Source of the DNA: a virus
IMG/VR virus record: IMGVR_UViG_3300032307_000117
Span: 11,892 to 75,891 of that record
Direction: 5' to 3' (one strand)
DNA: 64,000 nt
The notes beneath the pieces were generated by a model. It saw only the letters and a list, made by a program, of their open reading frames with translations, had not been told where the DNA came from and searched no databases. Of this stretch, positions 14,159-45,206 are shown in pieces. The position numbers and the translations under genes are program-made. How positions within the stretch are numbered: the stretch's first letter is position 1; the number at the start of each line of letters is the position of its first letter.

Positions 14159-14796
14159 TATACCTCTTCCAGGCTAAGAGATATGTTCCAAAAGTCATAG
14201 TTGCTGCCACCACGCTTAACAACCCCGTAAGAAAAGTCTGAAAAGAATACTTCGACAACTTCATTGTATTTCTGCAGGTTTGTGTATGAACCAGCATCTC
14301 TACCAAAATTTGTGTGCTTGTCGTATGCAAGGTATACCCAGAAAGATCCACTGTGTTTTTCGTACCAGTCTAGAATCTCTACTCCACCAGCACCACCATC
14401 TGAAGTAAATTCCTGAGTGTTGTTCTTGTAGTATTGAGATCTTCCCTCTTCATCAAATCCAGGATATGATGTGTACGATCTTGATGGCAACATATCCCAA
14501 GAAGCAGAAATCTCTAGCTTGTCAGCAATATGATAGGACCTCATCCTACCATTTACCATTCGTTTCCTGTTTTCAATTCTGTTTACGTTAAAGCCAAGCT
14601 CTGCCCTATTGTCGTCTGAAAGGATTAAGAATTGATCTAGATCTGATGCAGATGCACCCTCTGTTGTTTCTTGGTTAACCTCAAGACCGTTTGGCACATA
14701 GAAACCATCAATAATCGTTCCTGGATTGTCTGCAAATAGCAAGGCCTGTGGACGCTGATATCTTTTTCTACCAGACATGTATTCAAGGGTGGACAT
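14158..14796 (-). CDS. Distal tail (Dit-like) protein
   Basis: Directly after the TMP; RMVNGRMRSY and WNISLSLEEV. Confidence 0.7.
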   Translation of the reverse strand: MSTLEYMSGRKRYQRPQALLFADNPGTIIDGFYVPNGLEVNQETTEGASASDLDQFLILSDDNRAELGFNVNRIENRKRMVNGRMRSYHIADKLEISASWDMLPSRSYTSYPGFDEEGRSQYYKNNTQEFTSDGGAGGVEILDWYEKHSGSFWVYLAYDKHTNFGRDAGSYTNLQKYNEVVEVFFSDFSYGVVKRGGSNYDFWNISLSLEEV

Positions 14797-17700
14797 TAGA
14801 ACCTATTACCCCTGATTCTCTGAGAGTCAATTCTCTTAATCTGTGTCATTACATTCCTTGCAATTTGGTCTGCGTTAGCATCTGTTTGTACGTTTACGTT
14901 GATACTATAATTATACACTGATTCGCCAGAATATGTTCCGTTATTTATTGCCTTCATATTATCTAGGCCAAAGTTCTCAACAGCATACTTTCTCATTACA
15001 AATTCGCCAGGTGTTAGCATTGCTGGGACAATGTCGGTTCCGCCCTTGGCAAACTTTACGTTGGCTAGGCCTCCACCCGCAAACATCTTGGCAACATAGC
15101 CACCCTGGTTAAACTTAGCTGCATTAACCTTGCCAACATTAGAAATCTTATTCCACTTCTTGCCATCCCACTTCCAGGTTGCATTTGGACCAACCCAAAC
15201 CTCACCCTTCTTTTTCCCATCGTGATCTGGGCCTGGCCTTGTACCCTTAAATTCGGCATTTGGCTGGCCTGCAACTGGAGCCTGAGCCCCAGTGCCCTGA
15301 CTTACCAGAGGAACGTCAACCTGCGTTTCTCCTGGAGTAGCATTTTTCCATGCAGTCTTTAAGCTTTCTACCATTGCGATTGCATTAGAAATTGATTCAG
15401 TATAGCGAGTACTTCCAATTCTAGAGTTCTCTATTTCGGATTCGATTTGTTGCCAAGCTAGTCTAGTCTTATCCAAAACAGTTACGGAATCTATAAGGGC
15501 TTGTTTCTCGATGTCTGCTAATCTAATTCTTTCTTGTGCTGGCTCCAGCCTCTTTTCCTCTATAGCAAAGATTTCATCTTGCAACTTTTTAATCTCATCT
15601 TCTAGCTGCTTTCTAGTTTTGCCATTAGAAGATACTAGGGTCGCTAGCTCTTTCTCCTTTGAAAGCTCTAGGGCCTTTTGCTGAGCGTCTATGCTTGTTT
15701 GAGCCTGAGTAGCACGAAGATCTTGGGCTGCCTTTGCAGCTGCAGCAATATCTCCTCTAGATAGTGCATCTGCTACGGTAAGCTGAGCTTTTTGCTGAGC
15801 TACTAGGTCTGAGTTTATTTCTTTTATCTCACTCAGGGCCTTGCTACGGTCAGCGTACTTCTTGTTAACCACATCTTCCTGGTCTGCAATTTCCTTTATT
15901 CCAGCCTGAAGGTCATCAATTGTAAACGATATCTTATCGATATCATTCTGTGCAGCATCAATAATCTTTAGATCTGGCTGAGTCTTTACTTCAAAGTCTA
16001 GCTCTATCTTTCTTTCTTTTACTGAGATTGCATTCATTGCAGCATTAAAGCCTTCGTCAAACAGACCCTGTAAGAACTCTGGATTAAGGATTTGCTTTAC
16101 TCTAGCCTGAAGAAGCTTTTGATTTTTACCGCTCAGGAATAGCTCTGTGAGTGCTGAGTCGCTAAGAATTGCCTGTCTTTCTGCAAAGCTGTAAGAGCTC
16201 TTTTCAAGAGCGTTAGCAGCCTTAGCCAAGTTGTTTGCATCTTGTGCGGCTATCTGAACTGAGGCTACATTTTGGAATTCTTTTGTTGCAGCAGTTGCAG
16301 CCTTAGTATCTGCAATTAGCTTAGTAAGTGCAGATTCACTTATCTGCTTTCCAGCAAGCGCAGCTGCTACTCCAGCATTTTCAACAGCGTTGTAGGCCTC
16401 TTCTAGAGATAATCCTGCAGCTACTAGCCTGTTTACTGCAACAGTCTGGTCTTTTGTCTCTTGAATGGTTCTAGCCTGATTTAGCCCAAATTCACCAACT
16501 GCAATTCTAGCATAAGCGGCCTCTCTTCTCTTACCAGCCTTAGTAAGAATTGCTGTTCCATCTTTTCCTATTTGAACAAATTTCTTTCTAGCATCTTTGC
16601 CCATGCCCATAAGCTCATCAGCAAATGCTTCTGAAATGCCAGCTTTTGCAAGTTTTTGTCCAAGTCCGTCGAACACGTTTAGCTTAGTTCCATCGATTAC
16701 ACGCTTTAGCTCTTTTAGTCCACCGTTTGCATTAATTGATGCATTAGTTAGGTTCTTTAGCTTTTTAAGTGTGTCATCAATCCAGGTTGTCTTTTTAGCT
16801 CCTGCACCAGTAGTTGTTGTCTCTCCCTCAGTGTTGGTTCCAGTACCACCATCAGTTTCAGATGGTTGACCAAGGAATGCAGCCATCCGCTGTTCTGCAG
16901 TAATTCTAGACATTGCAGTTTCGCTTCTGATGTTTTTACCTGGGCCAACCGTGTAGTACCAAGCGTCAACGGCTGTCTGGTTGTATTTTCCAATTGCAAA
17001 GTCAACAATTAACTCTGCATTCATTGTTTTCTTTCCACCAGACAAGACATCCCAATTTGCAAGAACTGATTCCAGGATTCCCTTTGATGGACCAGCTGGC
17101 ATCGTAGATATGAAGTTTGTCAAGACTGTCTGAGTTACTTCCTTTGGAAGACCCTTTGTGTCCTTTACTAGATTTCCGATAACTTCAGTGTTTTCGGCAG
17201 TTATTTCAACGCCTATACCATATTCACTCTGCATGCTGTTTAGTTCAGCAAGTGCCTTTAGGTTATAGTCTATGTCTGCTTTATCTTTAGTAACAAGGCT
17301 AAAGACGGCCTCGTACTCTTTACCTTCAACCCCTGCGGCATTTAGTAATTGAATTACCTGGTTTGAATCTGCAGTTCCAACTGCTTTTACCATTAGATTA
17401 AACTTAGAGCTGATATTGCCGTTAGATTCTTTATTAGCATTAATGAGGTTTGAAATAGTGACTGGATCAAATTCGCCGCTTGCCAAACCTATCTGAAGCG
17501 TTGTCTTAAAGTCTCCCTGCTCCAACCCAGCCAGCGAACTCTTCGCTAGATCAGCAGCTGCCTTCATGGCTCCAGTTGCATTTGCAAATCTTGAATCAAT
17601 CGCCAAGTTTATTGAGTCTGTGAAGCCAGATCCCATTATTCTTGCTTGCTCTACTAGAGAATCAAATACCGCTGCATTTGCTGCTTTTTGTTTTGCCAGC

Positions 17701-20700
17701 CCAGCATTTCTTTCAGCAATCTTATCGCTAATCTGCTTCTCTATGGCAAGTCTTTCTTTTCTAGTTGTTGCAGCTTCTTTTTCTGCCTCAAGCTGGGATA
17801 TCTGACCGTCGTACTGTCTTTCTAGAGAATCTAGCAATCCCTGGTTTTGTGCAATTTGTTCTGCACCAAGCTGTACGGCTACGCCACGAGCCTTGTTGTT
17901 TTCTTCCTGATCTCCGAGTGCCTCTACTCCTAGGGTTGCACCAGCTGCAGCAACACCTCCAGAAATAAGTCCGATACCAAGAAGACCACCAATACCAGTT
18001 GCAGTTAGGGCTGCCCCAACGGCTGTCATAATTCCAGCACCGATTAGGTTGCCTACAGAACCACCAGATACCTCGGCATTCTTTTTCATTAATTCTATTG
18101 AGTTGTCAAAAGCCTTGTTTTGCTGTGCAAGAGAATCTTTTTGGATTGCCAAAGAAATTTCTATTGGATCTCCATTAAGAAGGTTCTCTCCGTTTGGACC
18201 AAAAAGCTGTGTTAACTTTCCACCGATGTTTGCGCTTATAGAATAGTCTCCGAGTTTTTCTGAAAGCCCAAACGCAATACTTCTAGCCTGTTGGTCAGTT
18301 ATTGCACCCTGCATTATTGCATAAGAAAGTTGGCTAGCAATGCTTGAGGCAACTTCTGCACTGCTCATTCCAGATGTTGTCATTGCCTCTGCATCGGAAA
18401 GCAGCTTCTTTCCAGCCTGAGATTCTAAGAAGTTTTGTCCGAACTCTCTCTTCTTTGCACCTTGACCACTTAGCTGTTTTTCTCTTTGTCTTTCGGCAAT
18501 TTGACTTGCTGTTACTTTTCCAGTAATCTCAGACATTTCGTTAAGCTTTTCGCTTGTCATTGCCATAGACTTACCAGCCTCTAGCCCAGCCTTAGTGGCA
18601 TCTGATAGCTTAGTGGTTAGATAAATAATTCCTGCAGCTAAAGCCCCAACTGCAACTAGTGCCAAACCTATTTTATTTGCAATCATAGGAAGCATCATTA
18701 ATGGTAGCGAGGCCATTCCAGCTAAGTCTGACGCTGGGCCTCCAGTCATGCTGTACATCATAGCAGCGGTACCAGCAAGCATGCCAACTCCGCCTACACG
18801 ACCAGCCATAGATCTCTTTCCTGCTGTGGCTGGTTCTGTTGGATCAAGATCGGCTGGGGCCGTTCCAGTTCCTGGAGCTCTAACTCCAGTAGCTGCTGCA
18901 ATTGCTCTTCTAGCTGCATCGCCAAAGCCCTGCTTTAGATTGCCAGCAAGACCTCTTGATGACTTTTGGGTAAGCTCAACCTGAACTGGCTCAGCTGTAT
19001 TTGGTAGCGTACCTCCAGGTGCCGTCTTTCCTTTTACGTATCCAGGTACGTTATCGGCAATCATAGAATTAATTAGTGGTGCATACTTCTTTGACATTTG
19101 AGCTGGTATTACAGCTTCTCCTGGAGAAAGCATTGCTGGAACGATGTCCCCAGCACCCTTTGGGCCTGGAACAGACACTACGCCCTTATTAAAGGCAAAG
19201 CCTCTTCTTCTAAAGAATGCCTTAAAGAAATTAGTATTTGGAGACTTAGCATATTCAAGGTTTTCTTTAGATCCTGGGAACTGCTTAGCCAGTGGCCTCA
19301 TTGGTATCCCAATTGGCTTTCTTTCCAGCCCCTTGCTCTTAAAGCCAGGAAGGTCTTTGTTTCTTATTTCGGCTGGTGAAGTTTGTGATCTTTTAAAGAT
19401 GTACTGTAAATCTTTAGTTCCTGCTGGCAAACGCTTTTTGGCTAAGTCATAAATTCTTTCCATACTTATGGCTTTGACACCTTTACTTTCTAAGTATCTG
19501 GCTGATGCTTCAGAATCTACTACCTTTGTTCCTTGCGGAAGATCGTCTAAAATTTTAGTGATGGTGTCATCAAACATCTTCGTCTGAGGAGCTAAAGCAG
19601 CTGGGTCTCCTCCGCCAAAAATAATAGAGCGATCCCATTTAGAAATGCCAGATCTTCTGAATTCTCTAAGTAATGCATCCTTGTCTGCTCCCTTTGCATA
19701 CTTAATTGACCCATCTGAATTTTGCCCTTCTGCCATTTGAGCATTTAGTCTTACTAGCTTTCCATCTGGCCCTATTTCTTTGTTTTCTATGTCAAAACCA
19801 AAGCCACTCTTTAGGTCTAACATTGTAGCATTTGGATCGGCAACTGTTTGCAAAGCTCTTTTTTGACTAGGAGAAAGCTTAAGTATTCCCTGATCAGATA
19901 GCCTTAATGCTTCTGCAGCAGATATTTTTGTTCCAGATCCGATATGAGCAAATTCTTTTTTAATTGAAAAAGCTTGTATGCCCATAGCTTCTCTGAAAGA
20001 TTTCTTTAAGACTCCTGATCCTAGCTTAGTTCCACTCTGGTTTGCAGTTAAAATTAATGAGTCTATGGCTCTAAGAGTTTTTTGAGCACCTAGCTGTGTT
20101 TTTGATTCATTTGCAGCATCGCTCATTATAGATGCAGCATCTTGGCTACCGATATTTGCCTGTGCTAATTTTGCAAGAATTTGTCTACCAATGTCAGCAG
20201 ATCCTGCAGCATCAAACATGGCTAAGCTTGTTGGGACAGTTCTATAGCTTCTGCCACCACTATAGGTGTATCCTAGAAGCTCAGAATATTTCTTTTGCTG
20301 GGAGCCAGTTAGGTTAAGATCACGGAATACCGCTCTATCTTGGTCAGTAAGGGCTAGTGCTGCACCTATCGTTCCACTCATCAATCCCTGGAAAAGTCCA
20401 GACTGAGAACCGCCTGGTACAGAGGCGATGCCCTTGCTATATCCTGGAACCCCAAGCTTTTTAAATAGCCTTGCTATAAAGCCAGGCCCTGTAACACGGA
20501 TTGAGCCAAGACCTGCAGATTTTAATTCTGACTTGATCTGCTTTGCCATTGCTGGATTGCTAGCAATTACCTTTTCAATTTCGGCAAATCCAAATCCACC
20601 AGGAGTATATGTTTCTACGTATGGAGATCTTGGATTAGTGGTGTACTGGTTCTTAGTTCCTGGAGTTAGGTTGCTGCCAAAGGGCATTCCCAGTCTTTCA

Positions 20701-23453
20701 AAAGAACTTAGTTGTCCAGCTGATGCGCCTCGCATTGGAGCAATCTGGAATGTGCCTCGGCCACCTGAGCTTTTTGCTCTATAGTAATCCATCAGGATAT
20801 CACCAGGGTATGCAGAAGACCTTCTTGCAACAGAACCCTTAGTTATAAGATCTATATCTCCATACATACCCAAAGATTTATCTGTTGGCTTTCTGGTAAG
20901 GGCATTAAAGTTTCTTCCCTTAATTCCAAACAGTGAATTAACTATTGACTGAAGAACAGAAGTTTTTGCATATCCGTATGTAGGCCTAGCAGATCCTGAA
21001 GTAGTCTTGGGATCTAGACCAAAAACATCGGACTCCATTTTTGCACGAAGCTTTTGCTGCTTTGGGTTTTGGCGACCATACTTTGTGAGGTAATCTGCCC
21101 CGCTTTGTGTGTCAAATGCGCTTTGATATCTTGCATTCTTTCCTTGTGACTGTAGAGCACTTATAAAGTTTCCTGAACCCATCCTTACAGCAACTCTGGA
21201 TTTACCTAGCATCGATGCAAATGGATTTCGTCCAAAAGCAAAGCCAGGAACGTTGTCGGCAATAAGAGATGAAATAATTCCACTGTACTTTTGGGATTGT
21301 CTTGCAGGAATAACTGCTTCTCCTGGTGAAAGCATGGCTGGCACAACATCTCCAGCCCCCTTAGGACCTGGAACAGAAAGAATTCCACGTGCATATCCTG
21401 GTATGCCATCAATGGTTCCCTGTGGTGACTGAGCTCTTCTGCCTCCAGGAATTCTAGTTATTGGCGGTGCAATAGAAATTCTTTGATTTGCGGCAGCCGC
21501 ATTCATTGCTAGCTGTGCTCTAGTTGCTGCCTGATAAACTCCAATTAGCTGAGTTAGGGCTGCTGCCTCAGAAGTGAAGGTTTGCTTAAGCATTGCATGA
21601 GATTGATTCAAAGATGCTGCTACGGCTGCTGCTTCCAGCTGCTCTTGGGTCATGTATTGGGTTGCAGATCCTAGCTCTGTAGAAGACCCAGACAATCTTT
21701 GATAGAATAACCTTAAGGCATTAAATCCCTTTGCCAGGTTTGCAACACCGTTGGCAACTAGACCTATAGTCATAAGAGCCGCTGGCGCAATTAATCCCAA
21801 TGTTGTAATAAGTCCAGTTACAAAGGCTTTTCCGCCTTCGCTCATATTGTTAAACTGTTTTAGTAGCGATGTTCCAAAATCAATAATTGGTGTAACAAGC
21901 TTAATAAACTGTTCTCCAAATGGGGCAAGAGATGCCTGAAGATCTTCCATTGCTTTCTTAAACTTGTAAGCTGGAGAATCCTCTAGTCTCTTTAATTCTC
22001 GCTCTGAAAGTATCGCAAGCTCTTCTGCGGTTGCCTTAGATAGCTGAAGAACACGGCTTGCCTGATTTCCTTGTCCAATTACGTTTTGAAATAGTGTTGA
22101 AATACGTGAAAATTGGAACTTACCGAATAGCTGCTCAATTGCTCTAGCACGGTTTAGAGGATCTAGCGTATCCAATGCATTAGCAAAATCAATGACTAGA
22201 CCTTTTACGTCGCCCTTATTTGACTCTACAATATTTTTTACATTTATTCCAAATTGAGCCAGCATTTCTGCAGCTTTGCCAGTTGGATTAATTAAAGAGG
22301 CAAGACCAGACTTAAGTGCGTTGGCACCTTCAGAGGCATTAATTCCACCTTCTTTCATGGCGGTTAGGAAAAATGCTAAGTCCTCGACGTCTCCACCCAG
22401 CTGTTGAACTACTGGACCAGCTTTTGGAATGGCAATAGTTAAGTCTTCAATACTTACAACAGTTTGGTTTTCAACAGCGTTAAGAAAGTCTGTTTTTCTT
22501 GCAAGATCTTCGGTTGCAACACCAAAAGCACTAGTTAAAGATATTGTAGTTTTTAGTGCTTCTTGCTGTTCTACCCCACCCAAAACGGCAAGTCTTGTTG
22601 CCTCTGCAACCTGAGCTGTTAATCCTGCGCCCATTTGACCCATTGCTGCAGCATCGGCTGCTAGCTCCATAGTCTTTTCTACGGCAACACCATATTTTGT
22701 AAACTCATTTGCAAGGTCTCTAATACCAGCCAAAGCCTTTTCTGTTTCAGCAGTGGTTGTAAACATTTCACCATAAACACGTCTAAAACGAATTGCCTGC
22801 TCTTCGAGCTTCATAAATGTCTTAGAGGCAACAGTCCCAAGCATTGTAAGAGGAATAGTAAAACCAACCATAAGCTGGCGACCAGCCCACTGAGTATTTT
22901 TACCCCAGTTTAAAAGATTTGTAGATCCTTGCTTTACAAGCTGATTGAATAGTTGCTGCTTCTGAGCAGTCATGGCTGTCTGGGTAGCCAAGTTATTCAT
23001 ATCTAGAACAAGTGGTCTAACGTTAATTGCCTGAAGGGCACCGCTAGCATCACGACCCATCTTAATGTATTGGGTCTGAAGAGTCTTTACTCTTTCTCTA
23101 GATACCTTTTCAATTGTGTCAAACTCGGATCTGAATAGTCGTCCGAATGTTTTTGTAGATGCCCCAGCGTACCTAAAGTACTCTCCCATAGAGAGCTTGT
23201 TCTTTTCCAGGGCATTGGTAAAAGATTCTGTAGTGCTTTTTATTGTAGAAAGATTGGCAGAAAACTTGCCAGTAGCATTAATAGAGTCAACAAGACTCTT
23301 CTGCATGTTTCTGGACATAGCAGCATTAGCTGCATTTCCAGATGCTTGCATTTGTGTGTGAAAGGCCGAAATCTGACGCTGCAGATTTTTAATACTTGCC
23401 AGAGCTGACGAAGTATCAATATCTATTCTAATATTGGCTTCAGAATCAGCCAT
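14796..23453 (-). CDS. Tape measure protein with internal cargo domains
   Basis: 2885 aa; TP901-type core (GGINASEGANALKSGL), hydrophobic segments, coiled coils, three VPAML(S/T)PGE modules. Confidence 0.95.
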   Translation of the reverse strand: MADSEANIRIDIDTSSALASIKNLQRQISAFHTQMQASGNAANAAMSRNMQKSLVDSINATGKFSANLSTIKSTTESFTNALEKNKLSMGEYFRYAGASTKTFGRLFRSEFDTIEKVSRERVKTLQTQYIKMGRDASGALQAINVRPLVLDMNNLATQTAMTAQKQQLFNQLVKQGSTNLLNWGKNTQWAGRQLMVGFTIPLTMLGTVASKTFMKLEEQAIRFRRVYGEMFTTTAETEKALAGIRDLANEFTKYGVAVEKTMELAADAAAMGQMGAGLTAQVAEATRLAVLGGVEQQEALKTTISLTSAFGVATEDLARKTDFLNAVENQTVVSIEDLTIAIPKAGPVVQQLGGDVEDLAFFLTAMKEGGINASEGANALKSGLASLINPTGKAAEMLAQFGINVKNIVESNKGDVKGLVIDFANALDTLDPLNRARAIEQLFGKFQFSRISTLFQNVIGQGNQASRVLQLSKATAEELAILSERELKRLEDSPAYKFKKAMEDLQASLAPFGEQFIKLVTPIIDFGTSLLKQFNNMSEGGKAFVTGLITTLGLIAPAALMTIGLVANGVANLAKGFNALRLFYQRLSGSSTELGSATQYMTQEQLEAAAVAASLNQSHAMLKQTFTSEAAALTQLIGVYQAATRAQLAMNAAAANQRISIAPPITRIPGGRRAQSPQGTIDGIPGYARGILSVPGPKGAGDVVPAMLSPGEAVIPARQSQKYSGIISSLIADNVPGFAFGRNPFASMLGKSRVAVRMGSGNFISALQSQGKNARYQSAFDTQSGADYLTKYGRQNPKQQKLRAKMESDVFGLDPKTTSGSARPTYGYAKTSVLQSIVNSLFGIKGRNFNALTRKPTDKSLGMYGDIDLITKGSVARRSSAYPGDILMDYYRAKSSGGRGTFQIAPMRGASAGQLSSFERLGMPFGSNLTPGTKNQYTTNPRSPYVETYTPGGFGFAEIEKVIASNPAMAKQIKSELKSAGLGSIRVTGPGFIARLFKKLGVPGYSKGIASVPGGSQSGLFQGLMSGTIGAALALTDQDRAVFRDLNLTGSQQKKYSELLGYTYSGGRSYRTVPTSLAMFDAAGSADIGRQILAKLAQANIGSQDAASIMSDAANESKTQLGAQKTLRAIDSLILTANQSGTKLGSGVLKKSFREAMGIQAFSIKKEFAHIGSGTKISAAEALRLSDQGILKLSPSQKRALQTVADPNATMLDLKSGFGFDIENKEIGPDGKLVRLNAQMAEGQNSDGSIKYAKGADKDALLREFRRSGISKWDRSIIFGGGDPAALAPQTKMFDDTITKILDDLPQGTKVVDSEASARYLESKGVKAISMERIYDLAKKRLPAGTKDLQYIFKRSQTSPAEIRNKDLPGFKSKGLERKPIGIPMRPLAKQFPGSKENLEYAKSPNTNFFKAFFRRRGFAFNKGVVSVPGPKGAGDIVPAMLSPGEAVIPAQMSKKYAPLINSMIADNVPGYVKGKTAPGGTLPNTAEPVQVELTQKSSRGLAGNLKQGFGDAARRAIAAATGVRAPGTGTAPADLDPTEPATAGKRSMAGRVGGVGMLAGTAAMMYSMTGGPASDLAGMASLPLMMLPMIANKIGLALVAVGALAAGIIYLTTKLSDATKAGLEAGKSMAMTSEKLNEMSEITGKVTASQIAERQREKQLSGQGAKKREFGQNFLESQAGKKLLSDAEAMTTSGMSSAEVASSIASQLSYAIMQGAITDQQARSIAFGLSEKLGDYSISANIGGKLTQLFGPNGENLLNGDPIEISLAIQKDSLAQQNKAFDNSIELMKKNAEVSGGSVGNLIGAGIMTAVGAALTATGIGGLLGIGLISGGVAAAGATLGVEALGDQEENNKARGVAVQLGAEQIAQNQGLLDSLERQYDGQISQLEAEKEAATTRKERLAIEKQISDKIAERNAGLAKQKAANAAVFDSLVEQARIMGSGFTDSINLAIDSRFANATGAMKAAADLAKSSLAGLEQGDFKTTLQIGLASGEFDPVTISNLINANKESNGNISSKFNLMVKAVGTADSNQVIQLLNAAGVEGKEYEAVFSLVTKDKADIDYNLKALAELNSMQSEYGIGVEITAENTEVIGNLVKDTKGLPKEVTQTVLTNFISTMPAGPSKGILESVLANWDVLSGGKKTMNAELIVDFAIGKYNQTAVDAWYYTVGPGKNIRSETAMSRITAEQRMAAFLGQPSETDGGTGTNTEGETTTTGAGAKKTTWIDDTLKKLKNLTNASINANGGLKELKRVIDGTKLNVFDGLGQKLAKAGISEAFADELMGMGKDARKKFVQIGKDGTAILTKAGKRREAAYARIAVGEFGLNQARTIQETKDQTVAVNRLVAAGLSLEEAYNAVENAGVAAALAGKQISESALTKLIADTKAATAATKEFQNVASVQIAAQDANNLAKAANALEKSSYSFAERQAILSDSALTELFLSGKNQKLLQARVKQILNPEFLQGLFDEGFNAAMNAISVKERKIELDFEVKTQPDLKIIDAAQNDIDKISFTIDDLQAGIKEIADQEDVVNKKYADRSKALSEIKEINSDLVAQQKAQLTVADALSRGDIAAAAKAAQDLRATQAQTSIDAQQKALELSKEKELATLVSSNGKTRKQLEDEIKKLQDEIFAIEEKRLEPAQERIRLADIEKQALIDSVTVLDKTRLAWQQIESEIENSRIGSTRYTESISNAIAMVESLKTAWKNATPGETQVDVPLVSQGTGAQAPVAGQPNAEFKGTRPGPDHDGKKKGEVWVGPNATWKWDGKKWNKISNVGKVNAAKFNQGGYVAKMFAGGGLANVKFAKGGTDIVPAMLTPGEFVMRKYAVENFGLDNMKAINNGTYSGESVYNYSINVNVQTDANADQIARNVMTQIKRIDSQRIRGNRF

Positions 23454-23476: not shown

Positions 23477-23797
23477 TTACTTAAGATTGTTTAGCAAAGC
23501 TGCATCTGTAAGATTAATTCCAGATGCCTCTTCTACAATCTTATACACAGTTGGAAGGTCTAGAAGCTCTTCCAAAGCTGCTGCATCAGCTGCCAACTCT
23601 GGCTTGTACTGCTGCATAGCAATCTGTACACATTCCATCAGTAGGCTCATCGACTTCTCGTTGTCCTCTGCCACCTTTGCAATGCCCTCAAACTTGGACA
23701 TGAATGGACGCAGTAGAGAAATCTTTAGTGGGCGAACTGCCACCTTTGTTCCATCAATTAGTGTAATTGTCTTTTCTTCATTTACTGTTGTAGCCAT
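23477..23797 (-). CDS. Tail assembly chaperone (G-like)
   Basis: Between major tail gene and TMP; paralogous to the N-terminus of 23824..24519. Confidence 0.75.
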   Translation of the reverse strand: MATTVNEEKTITLIDGTKVAVRPLKISLLRPFMSKFEGIAKVAEDNEKSMSLLMECVQIAMQQYKPELAADAAALEELLDLPTVYKIVEEASGINLTDAALLNNLK

Positions 23798-23823: not shown

Positions 23824-24519
23824 TTATACCACAGTTGCACTCTTTTTGTCTATCTTTTCATAGCTTAGCCCCATGCCAATGCCGAAGCCAGCCTTCTGGG
23901 CTCCTACCCCTTGCAGGGCGACAACGTCATTTGGATCCTTTGTGGTTCCACCACTAAAGACCTTTGCCTTCATCTGTTCCCATGCGTTAGAGCTCTTCTT
24001 GTTGTCTTTATCTATGTCAACTCCCTGAATGGCAGCCAAAAACTTTTTTTCTTGATAGTCTAGCTCTCTTTTAGATTCTAGGGTGGCCATTAATTCTGGC
24101 ATAGATAGCGATGACTCTAGTTGTTCATAGTCTTTCCAGATACCCAGCAAGAATGCCTCTGCCTCTAGCTTTGCCAGGTCAAGGGTTTCCCATGTAGAAC
24201 CACTCTCTACGGCCTGGTCTTTAACAGTTTCTTCAGAATCTGGCTTTACCTTGATTCCAGCGGCTACCTCTATGATCTTATAAATAGTGTGAATATCGGC
24301 ATTGTCTTCTAGGTCAAACCTGTCTGGGGTATATTGCTTCATAGCTATTTTTGCACATTCCGTCAAAAATAAAACAGCTTGACTGTCATTACTTGCATTT
24401 TTTACAAACTCAAACAGCTCCATAAATTCTCTAAGATATTTAATCTTTAGTGGAGTTAGGCTAACTTCCGTGCCGTCCATAAGAGTTATGCTCTCAACGT
24501 CATATATTTTAGTAGCCAT
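23824..24519 (-). CDS. Tail assembly chaperone (GT-like fusion)
   Basis: G-like N-terminal domain plus C-terminal extension (LESSLSMPEL). Confidence 0.7.
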   Translation of the reverse strand: MATKIYDVESITLMDGTEVSLTPLKIKYLREFMELFEFVKNASNDSQAVLFLTECAKIAMKQYTPDRFDLEDNADIHTIYKIIEVAAGIKVKPDSEETVKDQAVESGSTWETLDLAKLEAEAFLLGIWKDYEQLESSLSMPELMATLESKRELDYQEKKFLAAIQGVDIDKDNKKSSNAWEQMKAKVFSGGTTKDPNDVVALQGVGAQKAGFGIGMGLSYEKIDKKSATVV

Positions 24520-33067: not shown

Positions 33068-36000
33068 TTATGCTGGGTCTGTCACGCTAGACTCTAAAAG
33101 AACGTTTCTAAGGACGTTGTATTGATAGTTTTTGAGCCTAAAAGTATTAGAGGTGTTTGTATCTACCTTTAAATCGTCCACAATTATCTTATTTGTTCCA
33201 GTGTAAGCCTTGTAAATGTTAGAGGCATTCAGACCAAGGAAGCTGGCAGACGAGATAACAAGAACATCGTTCCAGGTAAAGGAGTCTAGCCAGTATTCCC
33301 AGGTTCTATCTAGTGGATCAGTTGTGCTGGACTTAACTCTTAGCCATGGCCTAGACACGGTCACCTGGACCTCCTGGAGGCTTGTAGACTGATAATAGGA
33401 TACATTGTTGATAAGAACATCCCCCGTAATTCTAAAGGCTCCCTGGTAGTTCTTAAAGTCGATGGTTTGAGAGAAGCTAATCCCTAGCATAGCCCATTCA
33501 TCTACAGAGATCATAGGGTTCTTGGCAGCATTTCCATTTACATAAAATACTATTCCGTCCTCTACCATTCCAGTATTTGCATTTATAGCGTAGATTCTTC
33601 CACGTTTTCTGTCTGGTTGAGAAGAAACAACGTAGAACTTTATATATGTGCTCCTACCCTGTATCTCAAAGATTTCTCTAGCTTGCTCAGGAAATAGGCC
33701 CTGATTCTGTAGAATAGCCAATTGAGCTGCAATAATTCTATAGTTTGTAGCAAGGTTTTCGTTTATCGGAATAGATAGCCCTCTACTTACTCCAGGCTCT
33801 TCTGGACCCCTAAGCTGAATACCGCTGTTTTTTGTCAGGTATAGGTAGGGTGTGCTGCCCTTGTAAATACTAATTGGATTTCTTTCCTTGTAAGAAAAAT
33901 ATACGCCATATTTCTTGTATGGAAACATCTTTGCTCCAAATCTTGTACCAATCGGATTTGGGGAGACCTCATTAAATGACTGAGAGGCAAGCTGTAGCTT
34001 TTTGATTTTTACTGGCTGTGTCAAAATACCTTCGCTTTGCAGCTCTATGTGAACGACAATTTGTAGGTCATTAAAGTTTATGCCACTTGGCATATAAATG
34101 ACTGAATTGTCTACAACCTCATACTTTGTATTAAATATGCTTGAGTCTGGAATAACTATCCCATCGGCTGGCAACAATCTGGTATTTGTAAAAGACTTAA
34201 ATGGTGCATTTGGAGACTGAAGATATTGGAATGTTATGTAGGTCTTTACCAATGCGTCGGATGTGTCATAGTATTGCTGTCCCTCTAGCTCTACCGTTTT
34301 TGTCACGGCTGGGTAATTAATATTGAGCTGAATAAAGTCTAGGTCGTAATAGCTGTCACCATTAACATCTGTGACAAATTTTGCAAAGTATGTAAGTGGC
34401 AGGTAATCTTCCCAATAAGAGTCAGTAGCTATATCTAGGATTAGCTTGTTAAATATTATTTTAGGAACCAGAGTATAGCTTGCTGTATGAGCATCAGTGC
34501 TTATTACAGATCCAGACTCGTAAGATCCTCCGTCTGTTATTGTTGGCCATTCAGTAGTGTTGTAGCTACCGCCATCAAGATCTGTTAGCTCATTAAATGG
34601 GTCTCCGAAATCGTTAAAAATATCGTTATAGGGAATAAGGCCATTGTCATTAAAGGCATCGTATATCTTATCTAAGTTTCTTTCCGAACAAATAGCGACC
34701 TTATAGATCTTGCCGCTGAAAGTATTTGTAAGGTCTTTATTGCCACCAACGTATAGTTTTAGCCCATCCTTGTTACCAAAGAATGACAATAGGTTGCCGC
34801 CTACTGACTCTGCAAACCGTTTTATGTCAAAGCCTACGGAAAACTCTGTGCCCTCAACATACTGGTTTGATGTTGTAAGAATATTCTGCTCTGCACCCTG
34901 TCCAAATTTTAGCTTGTATACAACTTCTCTATCTACGAGACTTACTGTCAGGTAATTATTTGTTAGCTCATTTACTAGCTGTAGCAGTACCTGTTCAGAT
35001 GGGGATGCTTCCATAAACTTGAATATGCCATATACTGCTTTTGGATCTTGACCTATTAGATTTAGGCTAGGGAACAATATGTGACCCTGTGAGCTATCCC
35101 AGTCTGAATCTGGCCTAAGGCTTATAAATGTCTTTAGGTCATCTTGGGCAGCTAGGCAATCTGCGTACCAGTCACTACTAGGGTTATTTCTAAATACTAT
35201 TTCTGGCAACGAGTAAGATGGGGAAGACAGTGTGTTGTTTTGTACAGAAACGTTCTCCTGAACTCCCTGACTCCATCTACCAATATCTGGATACAAATAG
35301 TTATTTGCATAATCTGCAAATGGATAATCTATAAATACAGATGTTCCACTATATGCGGTGTTAATGTTTTCTGGAAATTCCACACCCTGGCCATACACCC
35401 ACCTTCTTTTAGCAACAATTGCTGGAACAGAATATGGGTAAAGAGCCACACAGTCTATTTCTATTGGGTCTACGTCATCATATGCATAGAATCCTAACCA
35501 GTCTTGGCTTCTTCCAAACTCGTCAAATTCTTTTGGTAGCTGTAGATTGGCAGTATCTACGTCAAGGAATAGAACTTCTTCTCCGTTTATCATAAGGCTG
35601 GCAGAATTATTAAGAACTCTAATATTAATAAGCATTGGCCTAAACCATTCCCCGACAAAGTGCGAAGAAAATGCATCTCCAACCTTCAGAGTTATAAACG
35701 GCCCATCTACATAAAGTCCATCTGTAGATGCTATTGGTCCAAAGATTCTTTTATTTTCTGTAGTATTGGAGTTTAGTCTTAGCCACATCTCCATGGTATA
35801 TTCTTTATATTGACCAACATCATTCAAGAATCCAGATCCAGGAATTATTAAGGATGGACCGTCTGGATTTGGGGAAATCTTTGTAACGCTAGATGCCCCA
35901 TAAACCAATGGTACACCAGAGTTTTTTGCAAACAAAAAGTTATCTTTTGCTAAATAGTATCCAGGCAGATCCTGCAATCCATAAGCCCTTGCTTCAATTC

Positions 36001-36655
36001 CATGACTCATAGACAGAGCAATATTCTTGTCCGATAAGTCTTCTAAGTCTACCCCCAAAGAGCTTGTGCTAAAGTTCTCTGACCACTGCCCTAGAGTTAA
36101 TCCATTTATCAAAAACGGATACTCTGTAATTTCTGGGGTCGCTTCATATTTAAGCTTAAGAATTATTCTTATTCCCTCAGTGGTTTCTGGGATTTCAAAG
36201 GTCTCTGATAAAAATATCCAGCGATTAAATATGCTGCTAACAAAGCTCTTTGTTTGTGTAACTGTATCTAGTGTATCTGGATCTGTATACTCGTATCCAA
36301 GCTCAAAGCCACTGACTAGCGGAGTTTCTGGATATACGTATACCCCAATAGAAAATGTGCCAAGATCCTGATTCATTTGTGGTACTGGGAATCCCTCGTT
36401 TTTAAAGCATACCACTTCTGGATCTGCGGGAGACCCAATAACCCTGCTTACAACACTATTAATAAAAGGCTCGTCAGAAATTGTTTCTGGTCCAGTCGCC
36501 TCTCCATTAACAATGCCCCATTCGGTTTCATTAAAAAACTGGCGGTCTTGCTCGTTAATAAAAGACACAAAATCTGCCTTGTCATCTAGAGACCATAAAG
36601 CCGTAGGATGCTCTGCGAACACCTTTTCAGCATAGAGGTTTGATGGAGATGACAT
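33068..36655 (-). CDS. Large virion protein with LamG/concanavalin-like domains
   Basis: HPTALWSLDD, YTMEMWLR, IDCVALYPY LamG-type signatures. Confidence 0.7.
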   Translation of the reverse strand: MSSPSNLYAEKVFAEHPTALWSLDDKADFVSFINEQDRQFFNETEWGIVNGEATGPETISDEPFINSVVSRVIGSPADPEVVCFKNEGFPVPQMNQDLGTFSIGVYVYPETPLVSGFELGYEYTDPDTLDTVTQTKSFVSSIFNRWIFLSETFEIPETTEGIRIILKLKYEATPEITEYPFLINGLTLGQWSENFSTSSLGVDLEDLSDKNIALSMSHGIEARAYGLQDLPGYYLAKDNFLFAKNSGVPLVYGASSVTKISPNPDGPSLIIPGSGFLNDVGQYKEYTMEMWLRLNSNTTENKRIFGPIASTDGLYVDGPFITLKVGDAFSSHFVGEWFRPMLINIRVLNNSASLMINGEEVLFLDVDTANLQLPKEFDEFGRSQDWLGFYAYDDVDPIEIDCVALYPYSVPAIVAKRRWVYGQGVEFPENINTAYSGTSVFIDYPFADYANNYLYPDIGRWSQGVQENVSVQNNTLSSPSYSLPEIVFRNNPSSDWYADCLAAQDDLKTFISLRPDSDWDSSQGHILFPSLNLIGQDPKAVYGIFKFMEASPSEQVLLQLVNELTNNYLTVSLVDREVVYKLKFGQGAEQNILTTSNQYVEGTEFSVGFDIKRFAESVGGNLLSFFGNKDGLKLYVGGNKDLTNTFSGKIYKVAICSERNLDKIYDAFNDNGLIPYNDIFNDFGDPFNELTDLDGGSYNTTEWPTITDGGSYESGSVISTDAHTASYTLVPKIIFNKLILDIATDSYWEDYLPLTYFAKFVTDVNGDSYYDLDFIQLNINYPAVTKTVELEGQQYYDTSDALVKTYITFQYLQSPNAPFKSFTNTRLLPADGIVIPDSSIFNTKYEVVDNSVIYMPSGINFNDLQIVVHIELQSEGILTQPVKIKKLQLASQSFNEVSPNPIGTRFGAKMFPYKKYGVYFSYKERNPISIYKGSTPYLYLTKNSGIQLRGPEEPGVSRGLSIPINENLATNYRIIAAQLAILQNQGLFPEQAREIFEIQGRSTYIKFYVVSSQPDRKRGRIYAINANTGMVEDGIVFYVNGNAAKNPMISVDEWAMLGISFSQTIDFKNYQGAFRITGDVLINNVSYYQSTSLQEVQVTVSRPWLRVKSSTTDPLDRTWEYWLDSFTWNDVLVISSASFLGLNASNIYKAYTGTNKIIVDDLKVDTNTSNTFRLKNYQYNVLRNVLLESSVTDPA

Positions 36656-42275: not shown

Positions 42276-43238
42276 TTATGTCCAACTAATATTTCCAGCT
42301 CCTGCTGTTATTATTGTAGTTACAAGCCCTCCACTTGCCGCAGATGATGATCCAGTTAGTCCTGCCCCAATGGTCAGAGAATATGATTCTGGATATCGTA
42401 AAACAACAACTCCTGAACCACCGTTTCCACCACCCTGTTCATATAGATATCCAGCCCCACCTCCACCAGTATTGGCTACTCCATTTGCATTTCCTAGTCC
42501 ACGCCTTGCTGTTTGGTTAGGAACCTTTAGTCCAGAAGTTCCTCCACCACCAATACCACCAACTCCAGTAGTAAGTGGAGAAGTTGCAGATAGGTTTCCT
42601 CCACCGCCACCTCCAGCATAATAACTGTTAGTAAACCCCAAAAGTCCTGCACCACCAACACCAGAAGTATTTATAATGTTTGGTTGTGTTCCAGCAGACC
42701 CAGCTCCTCCACCACCACCGTTTGCATAGTCATAAACGTAAAAATTACCGCTTCCACTAGAGTGCCCTCCTACAAACCCCTGATTAGCAGTTCCAGTACC
42801 AGCCCTGTTTGCACTATCTGAAGCTCCACCACCAGATCCACCATCATTTACTGAGCCTGCTGTTTGTCCTTGTGCTACACCTCTTCCACCACCTAAAGAA
42901 GTAATAGAGCCAAAAACTGAATCTATACCTTTAGTGCCTTGATCAGCTCCAGACTGATTTCCAATAGCTCCACCAGCACCAATTGTTACTGAATAATTTA
43001 CATTAGTTTGAGCAATTAGAGCACCTTCTGGATTAGATCCACCACCTGAGGTAAAACCAATGGCATTTGTCCTGTAGCCACCGCCACCACCACCGCCTGA
43101 GTGATATCCACCACCGCCACCACCACCCGCAACAACAATATATTCAACTGTTAGTAATGGTGGTGGTAACTGAGCTTTTGCATTACGAAAAACATAAAAA
43201 TTATTTATTCCAGAATATCTTAGGCTTCTTGCTGACAT
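42276..43238 (-). CDS. Glycine-rich adhesin/fibre tip
   Basis: VVAGGGGGG...GGSGVVVLRY glycine-rich domain. Confidence 0.8.
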   Translation of the reverse strand: MSARSLRYSGINNFYVFRNAKAQLPPPLLTVEYIVVAGGGGGGGYHSGGGGGGGYRTNAIGFTSGGGSNPEGALIAQTNVNYSVTIGAGGAIGNQSGADQGTKGIDSVFGSITSLGGGRGVAQGQTAGSVNDGGSGGGASDSANRAGTGTANQGFVGGHSSGSGNFYVYDYANGGGGGAGSAGTQPNIINTSGVGGAGLLGFTNSYYAGGGGGGNLSATSPLTTGVGGIGGGGTSGLKVPNQTARRGLGNANGVANTGGGGAGYLYEQGGGNGGSGVVVLRYPESYSLTIGAGLTGSSSAASGGLVTTIITAGAGNISWT

Positions 43239-44192: not shown

Positions 44193-45206
44193 TTAGTTAG
44201 ATGCTGCTGTTCTAAGGTATCTAATAATTACAATTCCAGCCCCTCCAGCACCCGAAACTCCACGATAACTAGCATAGCCAGACTGTTCCGCACTTCCACC
44301 ACCAGAGCCCGTGTTAATTCCACCATCTCCAGCTCTTGTGATAGCACCATTATTAAATACAATGCTACCATTTCCACCAGAATTCCTAGCAGATCCACCG
44401 CCGACTCCAGCCTGGGTGCCACCATTGTAATCTGCCCTGCTGCCGCCTCCACCGCCACCTATTCCACCATTTCCACCTCTTCCAGAGTTCCAGGAAGATC
44501 CGCCACCGCCAGCTGCATAAAAAAGTCCATCAACCCATTGTTTTCCAGGTCCACCGTCTCCACCATTTGTTGATCCTGTTTGACCAGCACCACCTGCACC
44601 TCCACCGCCACCAGAAACAACGTTTGTATTCCAGCCACCGCCAGAAAAACCAAAAGCAGTTCCTTGTACTCCTGCTACCTGATTACTTGCTCCTGGAGAT
44701 CCTCCATATGGAGCTCCACCACCCGAACCACCAGCAAGTCCATTTTGAATAACTGGTCCACCATCGCCATAAACTCCACCGCCACCGCCACCGACGGCCA
44801 CTTCTTGCAAAAATGAAGAATTTGTTCCATTATTTCCAAGAACTCCATTGCCCTCTACCGAGGCTCCTCCTGCACCGATAAGGACTGGATAAGATCCAGG
44901 TGTGATTGATAGGCTTCCAGAAATAAATCCGCCAGCCCCGCCGCCTCCACCGTGACGTCCGCCTCCAGATCCGCCACCAGCAACTACTAAGAAATCAGCC
45001 TGAACGGGGCCATTAAATACTTCCAGGGTTCCATTACCTGTAAAGGTGCGATAGTGATAAACGGAATCAGAAGTTAAAATGCCACCAGTAACAGTAGGCA
45101 GTAGCCAAGCATTATCCCTTACTAATTGATAATGCTCAGGAAGTCCGAAAAATCCTTTGATGCTGCCATTAGCCGTAGGCCCTAGCCTGCCACCATTCTT
45201 TGGCAT
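44193..45206 (-). CDS. Glycine-rich adhesin/fibre tip
   Basis: LVVAGGGSGG...GGAGIVIIRY. Confidence 0.8.
   Translation of the reverse strand: MPKNGGRLGPTANGSIKGFFGLPEHYQLVRDNAWLLPTVTGGILTSDSVYHYRTFTGNGTLEVFNGPVQADFLVVAGGGSGGGRHGGGGGAGGFISGSLSITPGSYPVLIGAGGASVEGNGVLGNNGTNSSFLQEVAVGGGGGGVYGDGGPVIQNGLAGGSGGGAPYGGSPGASNQVAGVQGTAFGFSGGGWNTNVVSGGGGGAGGAGQTGSTNGGDGGPGKQWVDGLFYAAGGGGSSWNSGRGGNGGIGGGGGGSRADYNGGTQAGVGGGSARNSGGNGSIVFNNGAITRAGDGGINTGSGGGSAEQSGYASYRGVSGAGGAGIVIIRYLRTAASN

Follow-up and report, generated by a model that had tools for sequence, protein, structure and literature searches.

In the Thermus phage P23-45, the tape measure protein (TMP) gp96, of 5,002 amino acids (aa), is fused to a virion RNA polymerase, which is active and carries out transcription of the first genes (Chaban et al. 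2024, PMC10770324). The TMP of phage T5, pb2 (pb2* and pb2C), is cleaved after R1127 during tail assembly, which frees an enzyme domain (Linares et al. 2023, PMC10038345), and lambda gpH is cut in a Gly-rich region at about residues 690–730 to give gpH* and gpHC, with neither the precise site nor the responsible protease known (PMC12617516). Published TMP-borne enzymes are fixed, comprising muralytic domains and the one RNA polymerase of P23-45. Here we describe a TMP gene, P0001, in a 64,000-nucleotide (nt) stretch of viral DNA (hereafter the window), which is part of a 75.9-kb IMG/VR record with a completeness estimate of 70% (IMGVR_UViG_3300032307_000117). This TMP looks like a plug-in platform, with a conserved trunk and joints and a fast-changing pool of folded, putatively enzymatic domains that includes one of SopF/DarT-type ADP-ribosyltransferase (ART) fold. 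The joints are copies of a module of about 65 aa, for which a profile (A1) was built from 42 modules.

P0001 resembles P23-45 gp96 in being a giant TMP with a folded enzyme that would act in the cytoplasm at the start of infection, and both proteins carry membrane segments. The gp96 polymerase, however, is N-terminal, fixed and conserved in related phages, whereas the candidate enzymes of P0001 and its relatives are internal, optional and exchanged at repeated modules. In T5 pb2, likewise, a TMP enzyme domain is cleaved off the body and remains at the tail tip, but this enzyme is a C-terminal muralytic metallopeptidase, and pb2 has neither a match to the module profile nor slot polymorphism. 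Lambda gpH carries one module just after its cut region, and its C-terminal helix docks in the tip; it differs in having this single module and no enzyme cargo. A cultured counterpart in layout is gp16 of the mycobacteriophage Douge (PDB 8ZDO), a TMP in which two strong modules bracket about 385 residues, although neither the modules nor the residues between them are resolved in the structure or discussed in its paper.

Enzymes or toxins that are packaged in the virion and enter with the DNA include T4 Alt and the MuF-fused polymorphic toxins of temperate phages (the latter reportedly described by Jamet et al. 2017). In MuF fusions, toxin domains that vary are attached to a structural trunk that is conserved. 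Both Alt and the MuF proteins are capsid-borne and the variable part is C-terminal, whereas here the carrier is a TMP of the tail and the cassettes are internal, fenced by a repeated module. We regard P0001 as a probable case of virion-delivered enzymes fused to the tape measure, set apart by internal and exchangeable cassettes. A full-text literature search retrieved nothing that connects TMPs to ADP-ribosyltransferases, to DUF3626 or to polymorphic cassettes.

We propose, with a probability of roughly 0.6, that the TMP is a modular carrier in which a conserved trunk and docking end hold exchangeable folded cassettes that leave the tail with the TMP at infection. That P0001 is a TMP follows from its intact open reading frame (ORF) of 2,885 aa (14796..23453; this and all other features of the gene lie on the minus strand and are given in window positions). 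The ORF matches PF10145 (PhageMin_Tail) at aa 246–444 with 84.7 bits (cut-off 33.2) and PHROG TMP families at aa 8–666 (best E 1.6e-94). It is flanked by genes in the chaperone position and, downstream, by the gene for a 1,545-aa minor tail protein (phrog_10359), and the order annotated in Streptomyces phage Gilson (chaperones, TMP, minor tail proteins) is identical. We read the layout of the protein as an N-terminal core that ends in a gpH-type module, followed by a variable region with two cassettes split by a truncated module. A full module closes the variable region. Beyond it lie some 1,300 residues of helical tape, which include hydrophobic segments of membrane type, then a third module and, at the C-terminus, a putative docking helix.

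Module copies were located by regular expression, by comparing segments of the protein with one another in BLASTP and by a hidden Markov model (HMM) iterated on relatives. The motif VPAML[ST]PGE starts at aa 704, 1438 and 2809. Copy 1 (aa 683–749, 21207..21407), found at the same position in nearly all relatives, and copy 2 (aa 1418–1482, 19008..19202) belong to an internal ‘SPGEA’ subtype, and copy 3 (aa 2787–2854, 14892..15095) is of the C-terminal ‘TPGEF’ subtype, the canonical gpH type. These intervals agree with those at which an earlier sequence-only reading of the window had placed three modules (about 21230–21400, 19030–19200 and 14940–15120). Over a stretch of 56 aa, copies 1 and 2 have 68% of residues in common (aa 687–742 versus 1421–1476, E 3e-23). 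Copy 3 is more divergent (54% identity over 26 aa, aa 2795–2820; E 4e-5 and 7e-6 against copies 1 and 2) and matches the family HMM with E 2e-22. At the DNA level copies 1 and 2 share 64% identity, but only 39% at third codon positions. The duplication is therefore old and has been retained by selection on the protein; it is neither recent nor an assembly artefact.

The first 14 residues of the module also match aa 1001–1015 (20409..20453; GVPGYSKGIASVPGG; BLASTP E 7e-4), where the same reading had seen a lone junction, GVPGYSKGIASVPG, near 20430. This is a truncated module, given that a full-length copy occupies the corresponding site in the relative P0012. The proposal that the slots arose by duplicating the module needs amending, because the internal copies are of a different subtype and were not simply copied from the C-terminal module of this protein. 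Among relatives, internal modules are mostly of the SPGEA subtype and C-terminal ones of the TPGEF subtype (120/157), which makes the internal joints a separate lineage.

Relatives were collected by a scan of IMG/VR, which gave 80 loci, and by an exhaustive HMMER search of 1.84 billion representatives, which gave 435 matches. About 230 related metagenomic TMPs share the conserved N-terminal 740 aa. Complete TMPs among them span 1,873–4,579 aa, and complete or near-complete ones hold 2 to 6 modules, the single-module entries being almost all truncated. A module lies at about aa 660–750 in nearly all of these proteins; complete ones have another near the C-terminus and 0–4 more in between. Alignment of P0001 with its ten closest relatives places the break in similarity at the end of module 1: identity is 57–68% from aa 1 to 741–750 (781 in two relatives), is then lost, and returns from about aa 1550 at 25–35%. 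The flanks are thus kept and the inserts vary, as anticipated if the modules delimit swappable slots.

The same cassette also occurs in different slots of different TMPs. More specifically, the first insert of P0001 is present in only 1 of the 80 IMG/VR loci, where it lies elsewhere in the protein (aa 2121–2338), and the second in none. Among the representatives, insert 1 follows either the first or the second module or lies close to the C-terminal end, and in most of the proteins that carry it a module comes immediately next; insert 2 likewise takes differing slots. Clustering of module-bracketed segments of up to 700 aa yielded at least 48 clusters of cassettes. One bracketed cassette, in the TMP of IMGVR_UViG_3300028027_000185 (TMP aa 729–1207; L019:9890-11326 (+)), contains a HAD acid phosphatase (PF03767, E 1.1e-6, 28.8 bits, cut-off 27). 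In the 4,170- and 4,579-aa relatives, Pfam recognised PhageMin_Tail only. The precomputed Pfam columns list LysM (PF01476) or PG_binding_1 (PF01471) for four relatives' TMPs (P0002, P0157, P0174 and P0219), so that wall-binding domains are in the cassette pool as well.

As in polymorphic toxin and effector families (Rhs, CDI and MuF types), a conserved trunk (the N-terminal 740 aa) is combined with variable, exchangeable domains. The extreme C-terminal variable domain and the immunity gene of polymorphic toxins were not found here: the cassettes lie within the protein, the putative docking end at the C-terminus is conserved and the next gene is a conserved tail gene. The idea of a polymorphic effector system housed in the tail is accordingly borne out in part, namely in its swappable slots, its globular inserts and the enzyme fold of insert 1.

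Both inserts are globular and not coiled-coil, much as the sequence-only reading had described them (about 270 and 410 aa): they measure 251 and 402 aa, and AlphaFold2 predicts globular alpha/beta or helical-bundle domains. Insert 1 (aa 750–1000, 20454..21206), folded from an 18-sequence alignment, gave an alpha/beta domain with a predicted local distance difference test score (pLDDT) of 75.8 and a predicted template modelling score of 0.72. In Foldseek the top match was SopF (E 1.9e-5), with DarT next (from E 9e-4). VIA aligned the model with SopF at Z 10.5 (171 residues, root-mean-square deviation 3.4), with DarT at about 10 and with the tRNA 2'-phosphotransferase Tpt1 at 8.2; CteC (6.7), CopC/OspC3 (5.3–5.6, with CopC at 5.6) and the pertussis and cholera toxins (about 4) followed. 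ADP-ribosyltransferases or the related Tpt1 occupied VIA ranks 1–30 and 32–33, rank 31 being a protein of unknown function. An ESM Atlas feature search with insert 1 independently returned DUF3626 clusters (0.92), and SopF carries DUF3626 (PMC6682159). SopF and DarT are the best structural matches, with 171–181 aligned residues, but share only 10–18% sequence identity with the insert, and they are a type III effector and the toxin of a toxin–antitoxin pair, not parts of a virion.

Among the 18 insert 1 homologues, which are 36–68% identical, 30 columns are invariant, including R757, Y776, D787, R803, E807, R823, D885 and E947. The ART signature comprises Arg or His on strand 1, an aromatic residue or Ser on strand 2 and a catalytic Glu on strand 5; in insert 1, candidate counterparts are R757 at the end of the first strand, Y826-G827 on a strand and E947 in the strand YVETY. 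The pattern of invariant polar residues fits an active site, as judged from the alignment. Overall, the predicted structure supports the assignment of insert 1 to the ADP-ribosyltransferase fold, an effector-type enzyme fold. Because the link in sequence is weak, we term the insert a SopF/DarT-like ART-fold cassette rather than a member of DUF3626; the homologue at locus L023 matches DUF3626 weakly (19.9 bits, E 4e-4).

Pfam gave no match to insert 1 or insert 2 even at E 10, a PDB sequence search with insert 1 gave none, scans of viral contigs with each insert alone as query returned no relatives, and a PADLOC search gave no match. Stand-alone homologues of insert 1, of 138–440 aa, were not found; most short proteins that bear it lie on contigs of 1–3 kb and are therefore taken as fragments, and a 480-aa protein on a 13.7-kb contig (P0141) carries it as well. 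A metagenome scan for the surroundings of P0141 and P0138 returned the L023 contig only.

The second cassette is harder to place. AlphaFold2 modelled insert 2 (aa 1016–1417, 19203..20408) with a pLDDT of 78.3: a helical subdomain spans about aa 1035–1160, an alpha/beta subdomain at about aa 1165–1365 exceeds 90, and the last 45 aa are disordered. Foldseek against PDB and BFVD and a wide VIA search found no clear match to this fold, the helical part dominating the wide search (best Z 7.1, to designed helical repeats) so that the alpha/beta part was barely probed. A PDB sequence search with insert 2 gave only chance-level HIV protease rows.

Alternatively, the inserts could be structural or penetration aids, serving as ruler length, for envelope binding or as part of a channel across the envelope, and the ART-like fold could be inert or a chance resemblance. 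Consistent with this are the lack of any Pfam family in the inserts, the lack of an enzyme signature in insert 2, the wall-binding domains in some relatives' TMPs, and the fact that muralytic domains are classic TMP inserts. The VIA ranking of insert 1 (Z up to 10.5 over 171 residues) and the invariant Arg, Tyr, Asp and Glu maintained across its divergent homologues point the other way, as does the HAD phosphatase cassette. Cassettes are moreover gained, lost and replaced among close relatives, which would be unusual for a part essential to assembly. A structural role is disfavoured by the ART fold, the invariant polar residues and this pattern of turnover, and we consider it unlikely.

The module itself is the lambda-gpH-type C-proximal TMP motif and is widespread among TMPs. 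The profile matched no Pfam family. It matched Douge gp16 with an overall E of 3.3e-28, the copies lying at residues 963–1025 (E 4e-12) and 1410–1474 (E 3e-12) of 1,699 aa, and it found one match in the 1,158-aa TMP of PDB 8rk3 (E 0.0017). In lambda gpH, which had been said to hold one such segment, it aligns at residues 730–785 (FATGG...GEFV...GYATGG), weakly (E 0.044). Further TMPs that contain the module come from cultured phages of Clavibacter (such as CN1A), Gordonia (such as GMA4), Stenotrophomonas, Nitrincola and Rhodococcus. In the Synechococcus cyanomyophage S-SCSM1, gp159 (L084:2195-5044 (+)), a 950-aa virion ‘lysozyme’, has a module at aa 588–643 (E 1e-19) and, downstream of it, a glucosaminidase domain at aa 697–816; the module is hence restricted neither to tape measures nor to siphophages.

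If the modules were also cleavage points, P0001 would be a true polyprotein. Cuts in or beside each module, made while the tail matures or at ejection, would release free effectors that diffuse in the host. The lambda gpH cut falls directly upstream of its module, the T5 pb2 cut separates an enzyme domain, a Gly-rich linker precedes modules, and the module has invariant Asp and Glu residues. Furthermore, most cassettes directly precede a module and so form cassette-plus-module units. The analogues on which this alternative draws are, however, single-module or module-less proteins, and the paper on Douge gp16, which has two modules, reports no cleavage. T5 pb2 is cleaved yet matches the module profile nowhere at E <= 1, so cleavage does not require a module, and the P23-45 polymerase is discussed as active while fused. 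We scanned ten ORFs downstream of the TMP gene and found no Pfam protease among them: seven were without a match, and those of the rest were to a DnaB-like helicase and a primase. By comparison with these systems, cleavage at the modules may be possible, but we tentatively hold it to be less than likely.

We also considered whether the module could be a self-cleaving protease of the LexA/S24 type. This candidate was rejected, as hhalign against Escherichia coli LexA gave a probability of 0.07%, and the LexA rows in a PDB profile search (E 0.15) were taken as chance. A basic amphipathic helix before [FY]xKG had been described at the end of both inserts; the two stretches exist in the sequence, but as a general junction signal the helix was rejected, since the 20–45 residues upstream of 479 modules are Ala/Gly-rich with a K+R fraction of only 0.1–0.2. 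Two relatives have interrupted TMPs, with an in-frame TAA within the tape region at L057:9996-9998 and a stretch with several stops at L045:13802-13969, either sequencing errors or real breaks. Neither lies at a module, so they are uninformative on processing.

Under the modular-carrier reading, recombination between phages would exchange the content between modules, since these are conserved in sequence, and would give the lineage a large pool of alternative cassettes. TMPs exit the tail before the DNA does, and at infection the cassettes would thus reach the envelope or cytoplasm of the host. There the ART domain would use NAD+ to modify one of the host's proteins or nucleic acids in advance of all phage gene expression. 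By analogy, delivery of enzymes into the host by the tail is probable, and the virion RNA polymerase of P23-45 and T5 pb2 are precedents that make it plausible. We infer the delivery, the activity and the nature of the target from these comparisons, and the cassettes might act either tethered to the TMP or cut free from it.

Several observations weigh against this reading. It is drawn from genes only, those of an uncultured phage, and insert 2 has no recognisable function. DUF3626 (PF12294, cut-off 27 bits) does not match insert 1 of the window at E <= 10, and 0 of 20 relatives match it at E <= 0.01; the enzyme assignment accordingly relies on structure prediction, at moderate confidence (pLDDT 75.8). 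Running the DUF3626 HMM on the phage's own record gave no match either, but control genomes also gave none, so this result carries little weight. The catalytic competence of insert 1 is suggested only by residue conservation. A folded domain of 28 kDa, in three or six copies, may not readily fit into a tail-tube lumen of about 4 nm, and a cassette would have to travel unfolded or in a metastable state. Finally, the 2,100-aa TMP of Gilson (gene 40, L082:9001-15303 (+)) has no module copy even at E 10, which indicates that modules are dispensable for a long TMP.

The enzymes could alternatively act in the producing cell, where the ART domain, within TMP that is still unassembled, would modify phage or host components in late infection or tail assembly. 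The TMP is made late and in quantity, and the sequence is compatible with activity before assembly. For such a role a separate gene would suffice, and placing the enzyme in the first protein to be ejected would be hard to explain; slot polymorphism fits an arms race at entry, and T4 Alt and the P23-45 polymerase are virion-borne enzymes that act at entry. We thus regard action in the producing cell as highly improbable.

A bolder form of the modular-carrier reading would make the SPGEA module a joint for both processing and recombination; the TMPs of this lineage would be true polyproteins that form a polymorphic system for injecting effectors. Enzymes by the dozen, among them ART, HAD phosphatase and many of unknown fold, would then be freed into the host ahead of the DNA, and the same module would be the cleavage determinant of lambda gpH. 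We consider this version doubtful. Since the module adjoins the gpH cleavage region, whose site and protease have been unknown since 1974, it does offer a concrete handle on gpH cleavage. If the cassettes are delivered, their enzymes would act on the host before phage gene expression, when host defences are decided. The cassette pool may also serve as a source of unknown enzymes, and the layout suggests where foreign proteins might be placed in a phage tail for delivery.

Outside the variable region, the TMP comprises three further parts. The conserved N-terminal core (aa 1–660, 21474..23453) includes the PhageMin_Tail match and a hydrophobic segment at aa 542–573. The long helical tape region (aa 1483–2786, 15096..19007) is homologous in all relatives at 25–35% identity, and a hydropathy scan located hydrophobic, Gly-zipper-like segments in it at aa 1582–1617 and 1800–1843. 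The C-terminal tail (aa 2855–2885, 14799..14891, ...IARNVMTQIKRIDSQRIRGNRF) is conserved in the consensus of relatives. It is probably a hub-docking helix, by analogy with lambda gpH 818–849, Douge gp16 1658–1699 and the 35 C-terminal residues of T5 pb2, which are all located in the tail tip; in the solved lambda and Douge tails these residues, C-terminal of the module, are the only ones resolved.

The source phage is an uncultured siphophage with a genome of about 110–125 kb, distant kin of the Streptomyces phages of the Stanwilliamsviridae. Its portal protein is 47% identical to that of Gilson. A megablast search of the TMP gene against cultured phages found no close DNA relative, and in tblastn the TMPs of cultured phages match the N-terminal 640 aa or so of P0001 only.

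Several neighbouring genes deserve a brief mention. In the chaperone position just upstream of the TMP gene, the ORFs 23477-23797 (-) and 23824-24519 (-) are paralogues that both match phrog_10504 over their first 104 aa or so, the longer one also matching phrog_10474; they look like two separate genes, unlike the usual G/GT frameshift pair. A 1,195-aa ORF (33068-36655 (-)) adjoins the portal gene and is nearly without family matches, phrog_11584 aligning over just 90 residues (E 3e-5). Amid fibre-like genes, the ORFs 42276-43238 (-) and 44193-45206 (-), of 320 and 337 aa, are a further pair of paralogues, both matching phrog_2295 (E about 1e-37).

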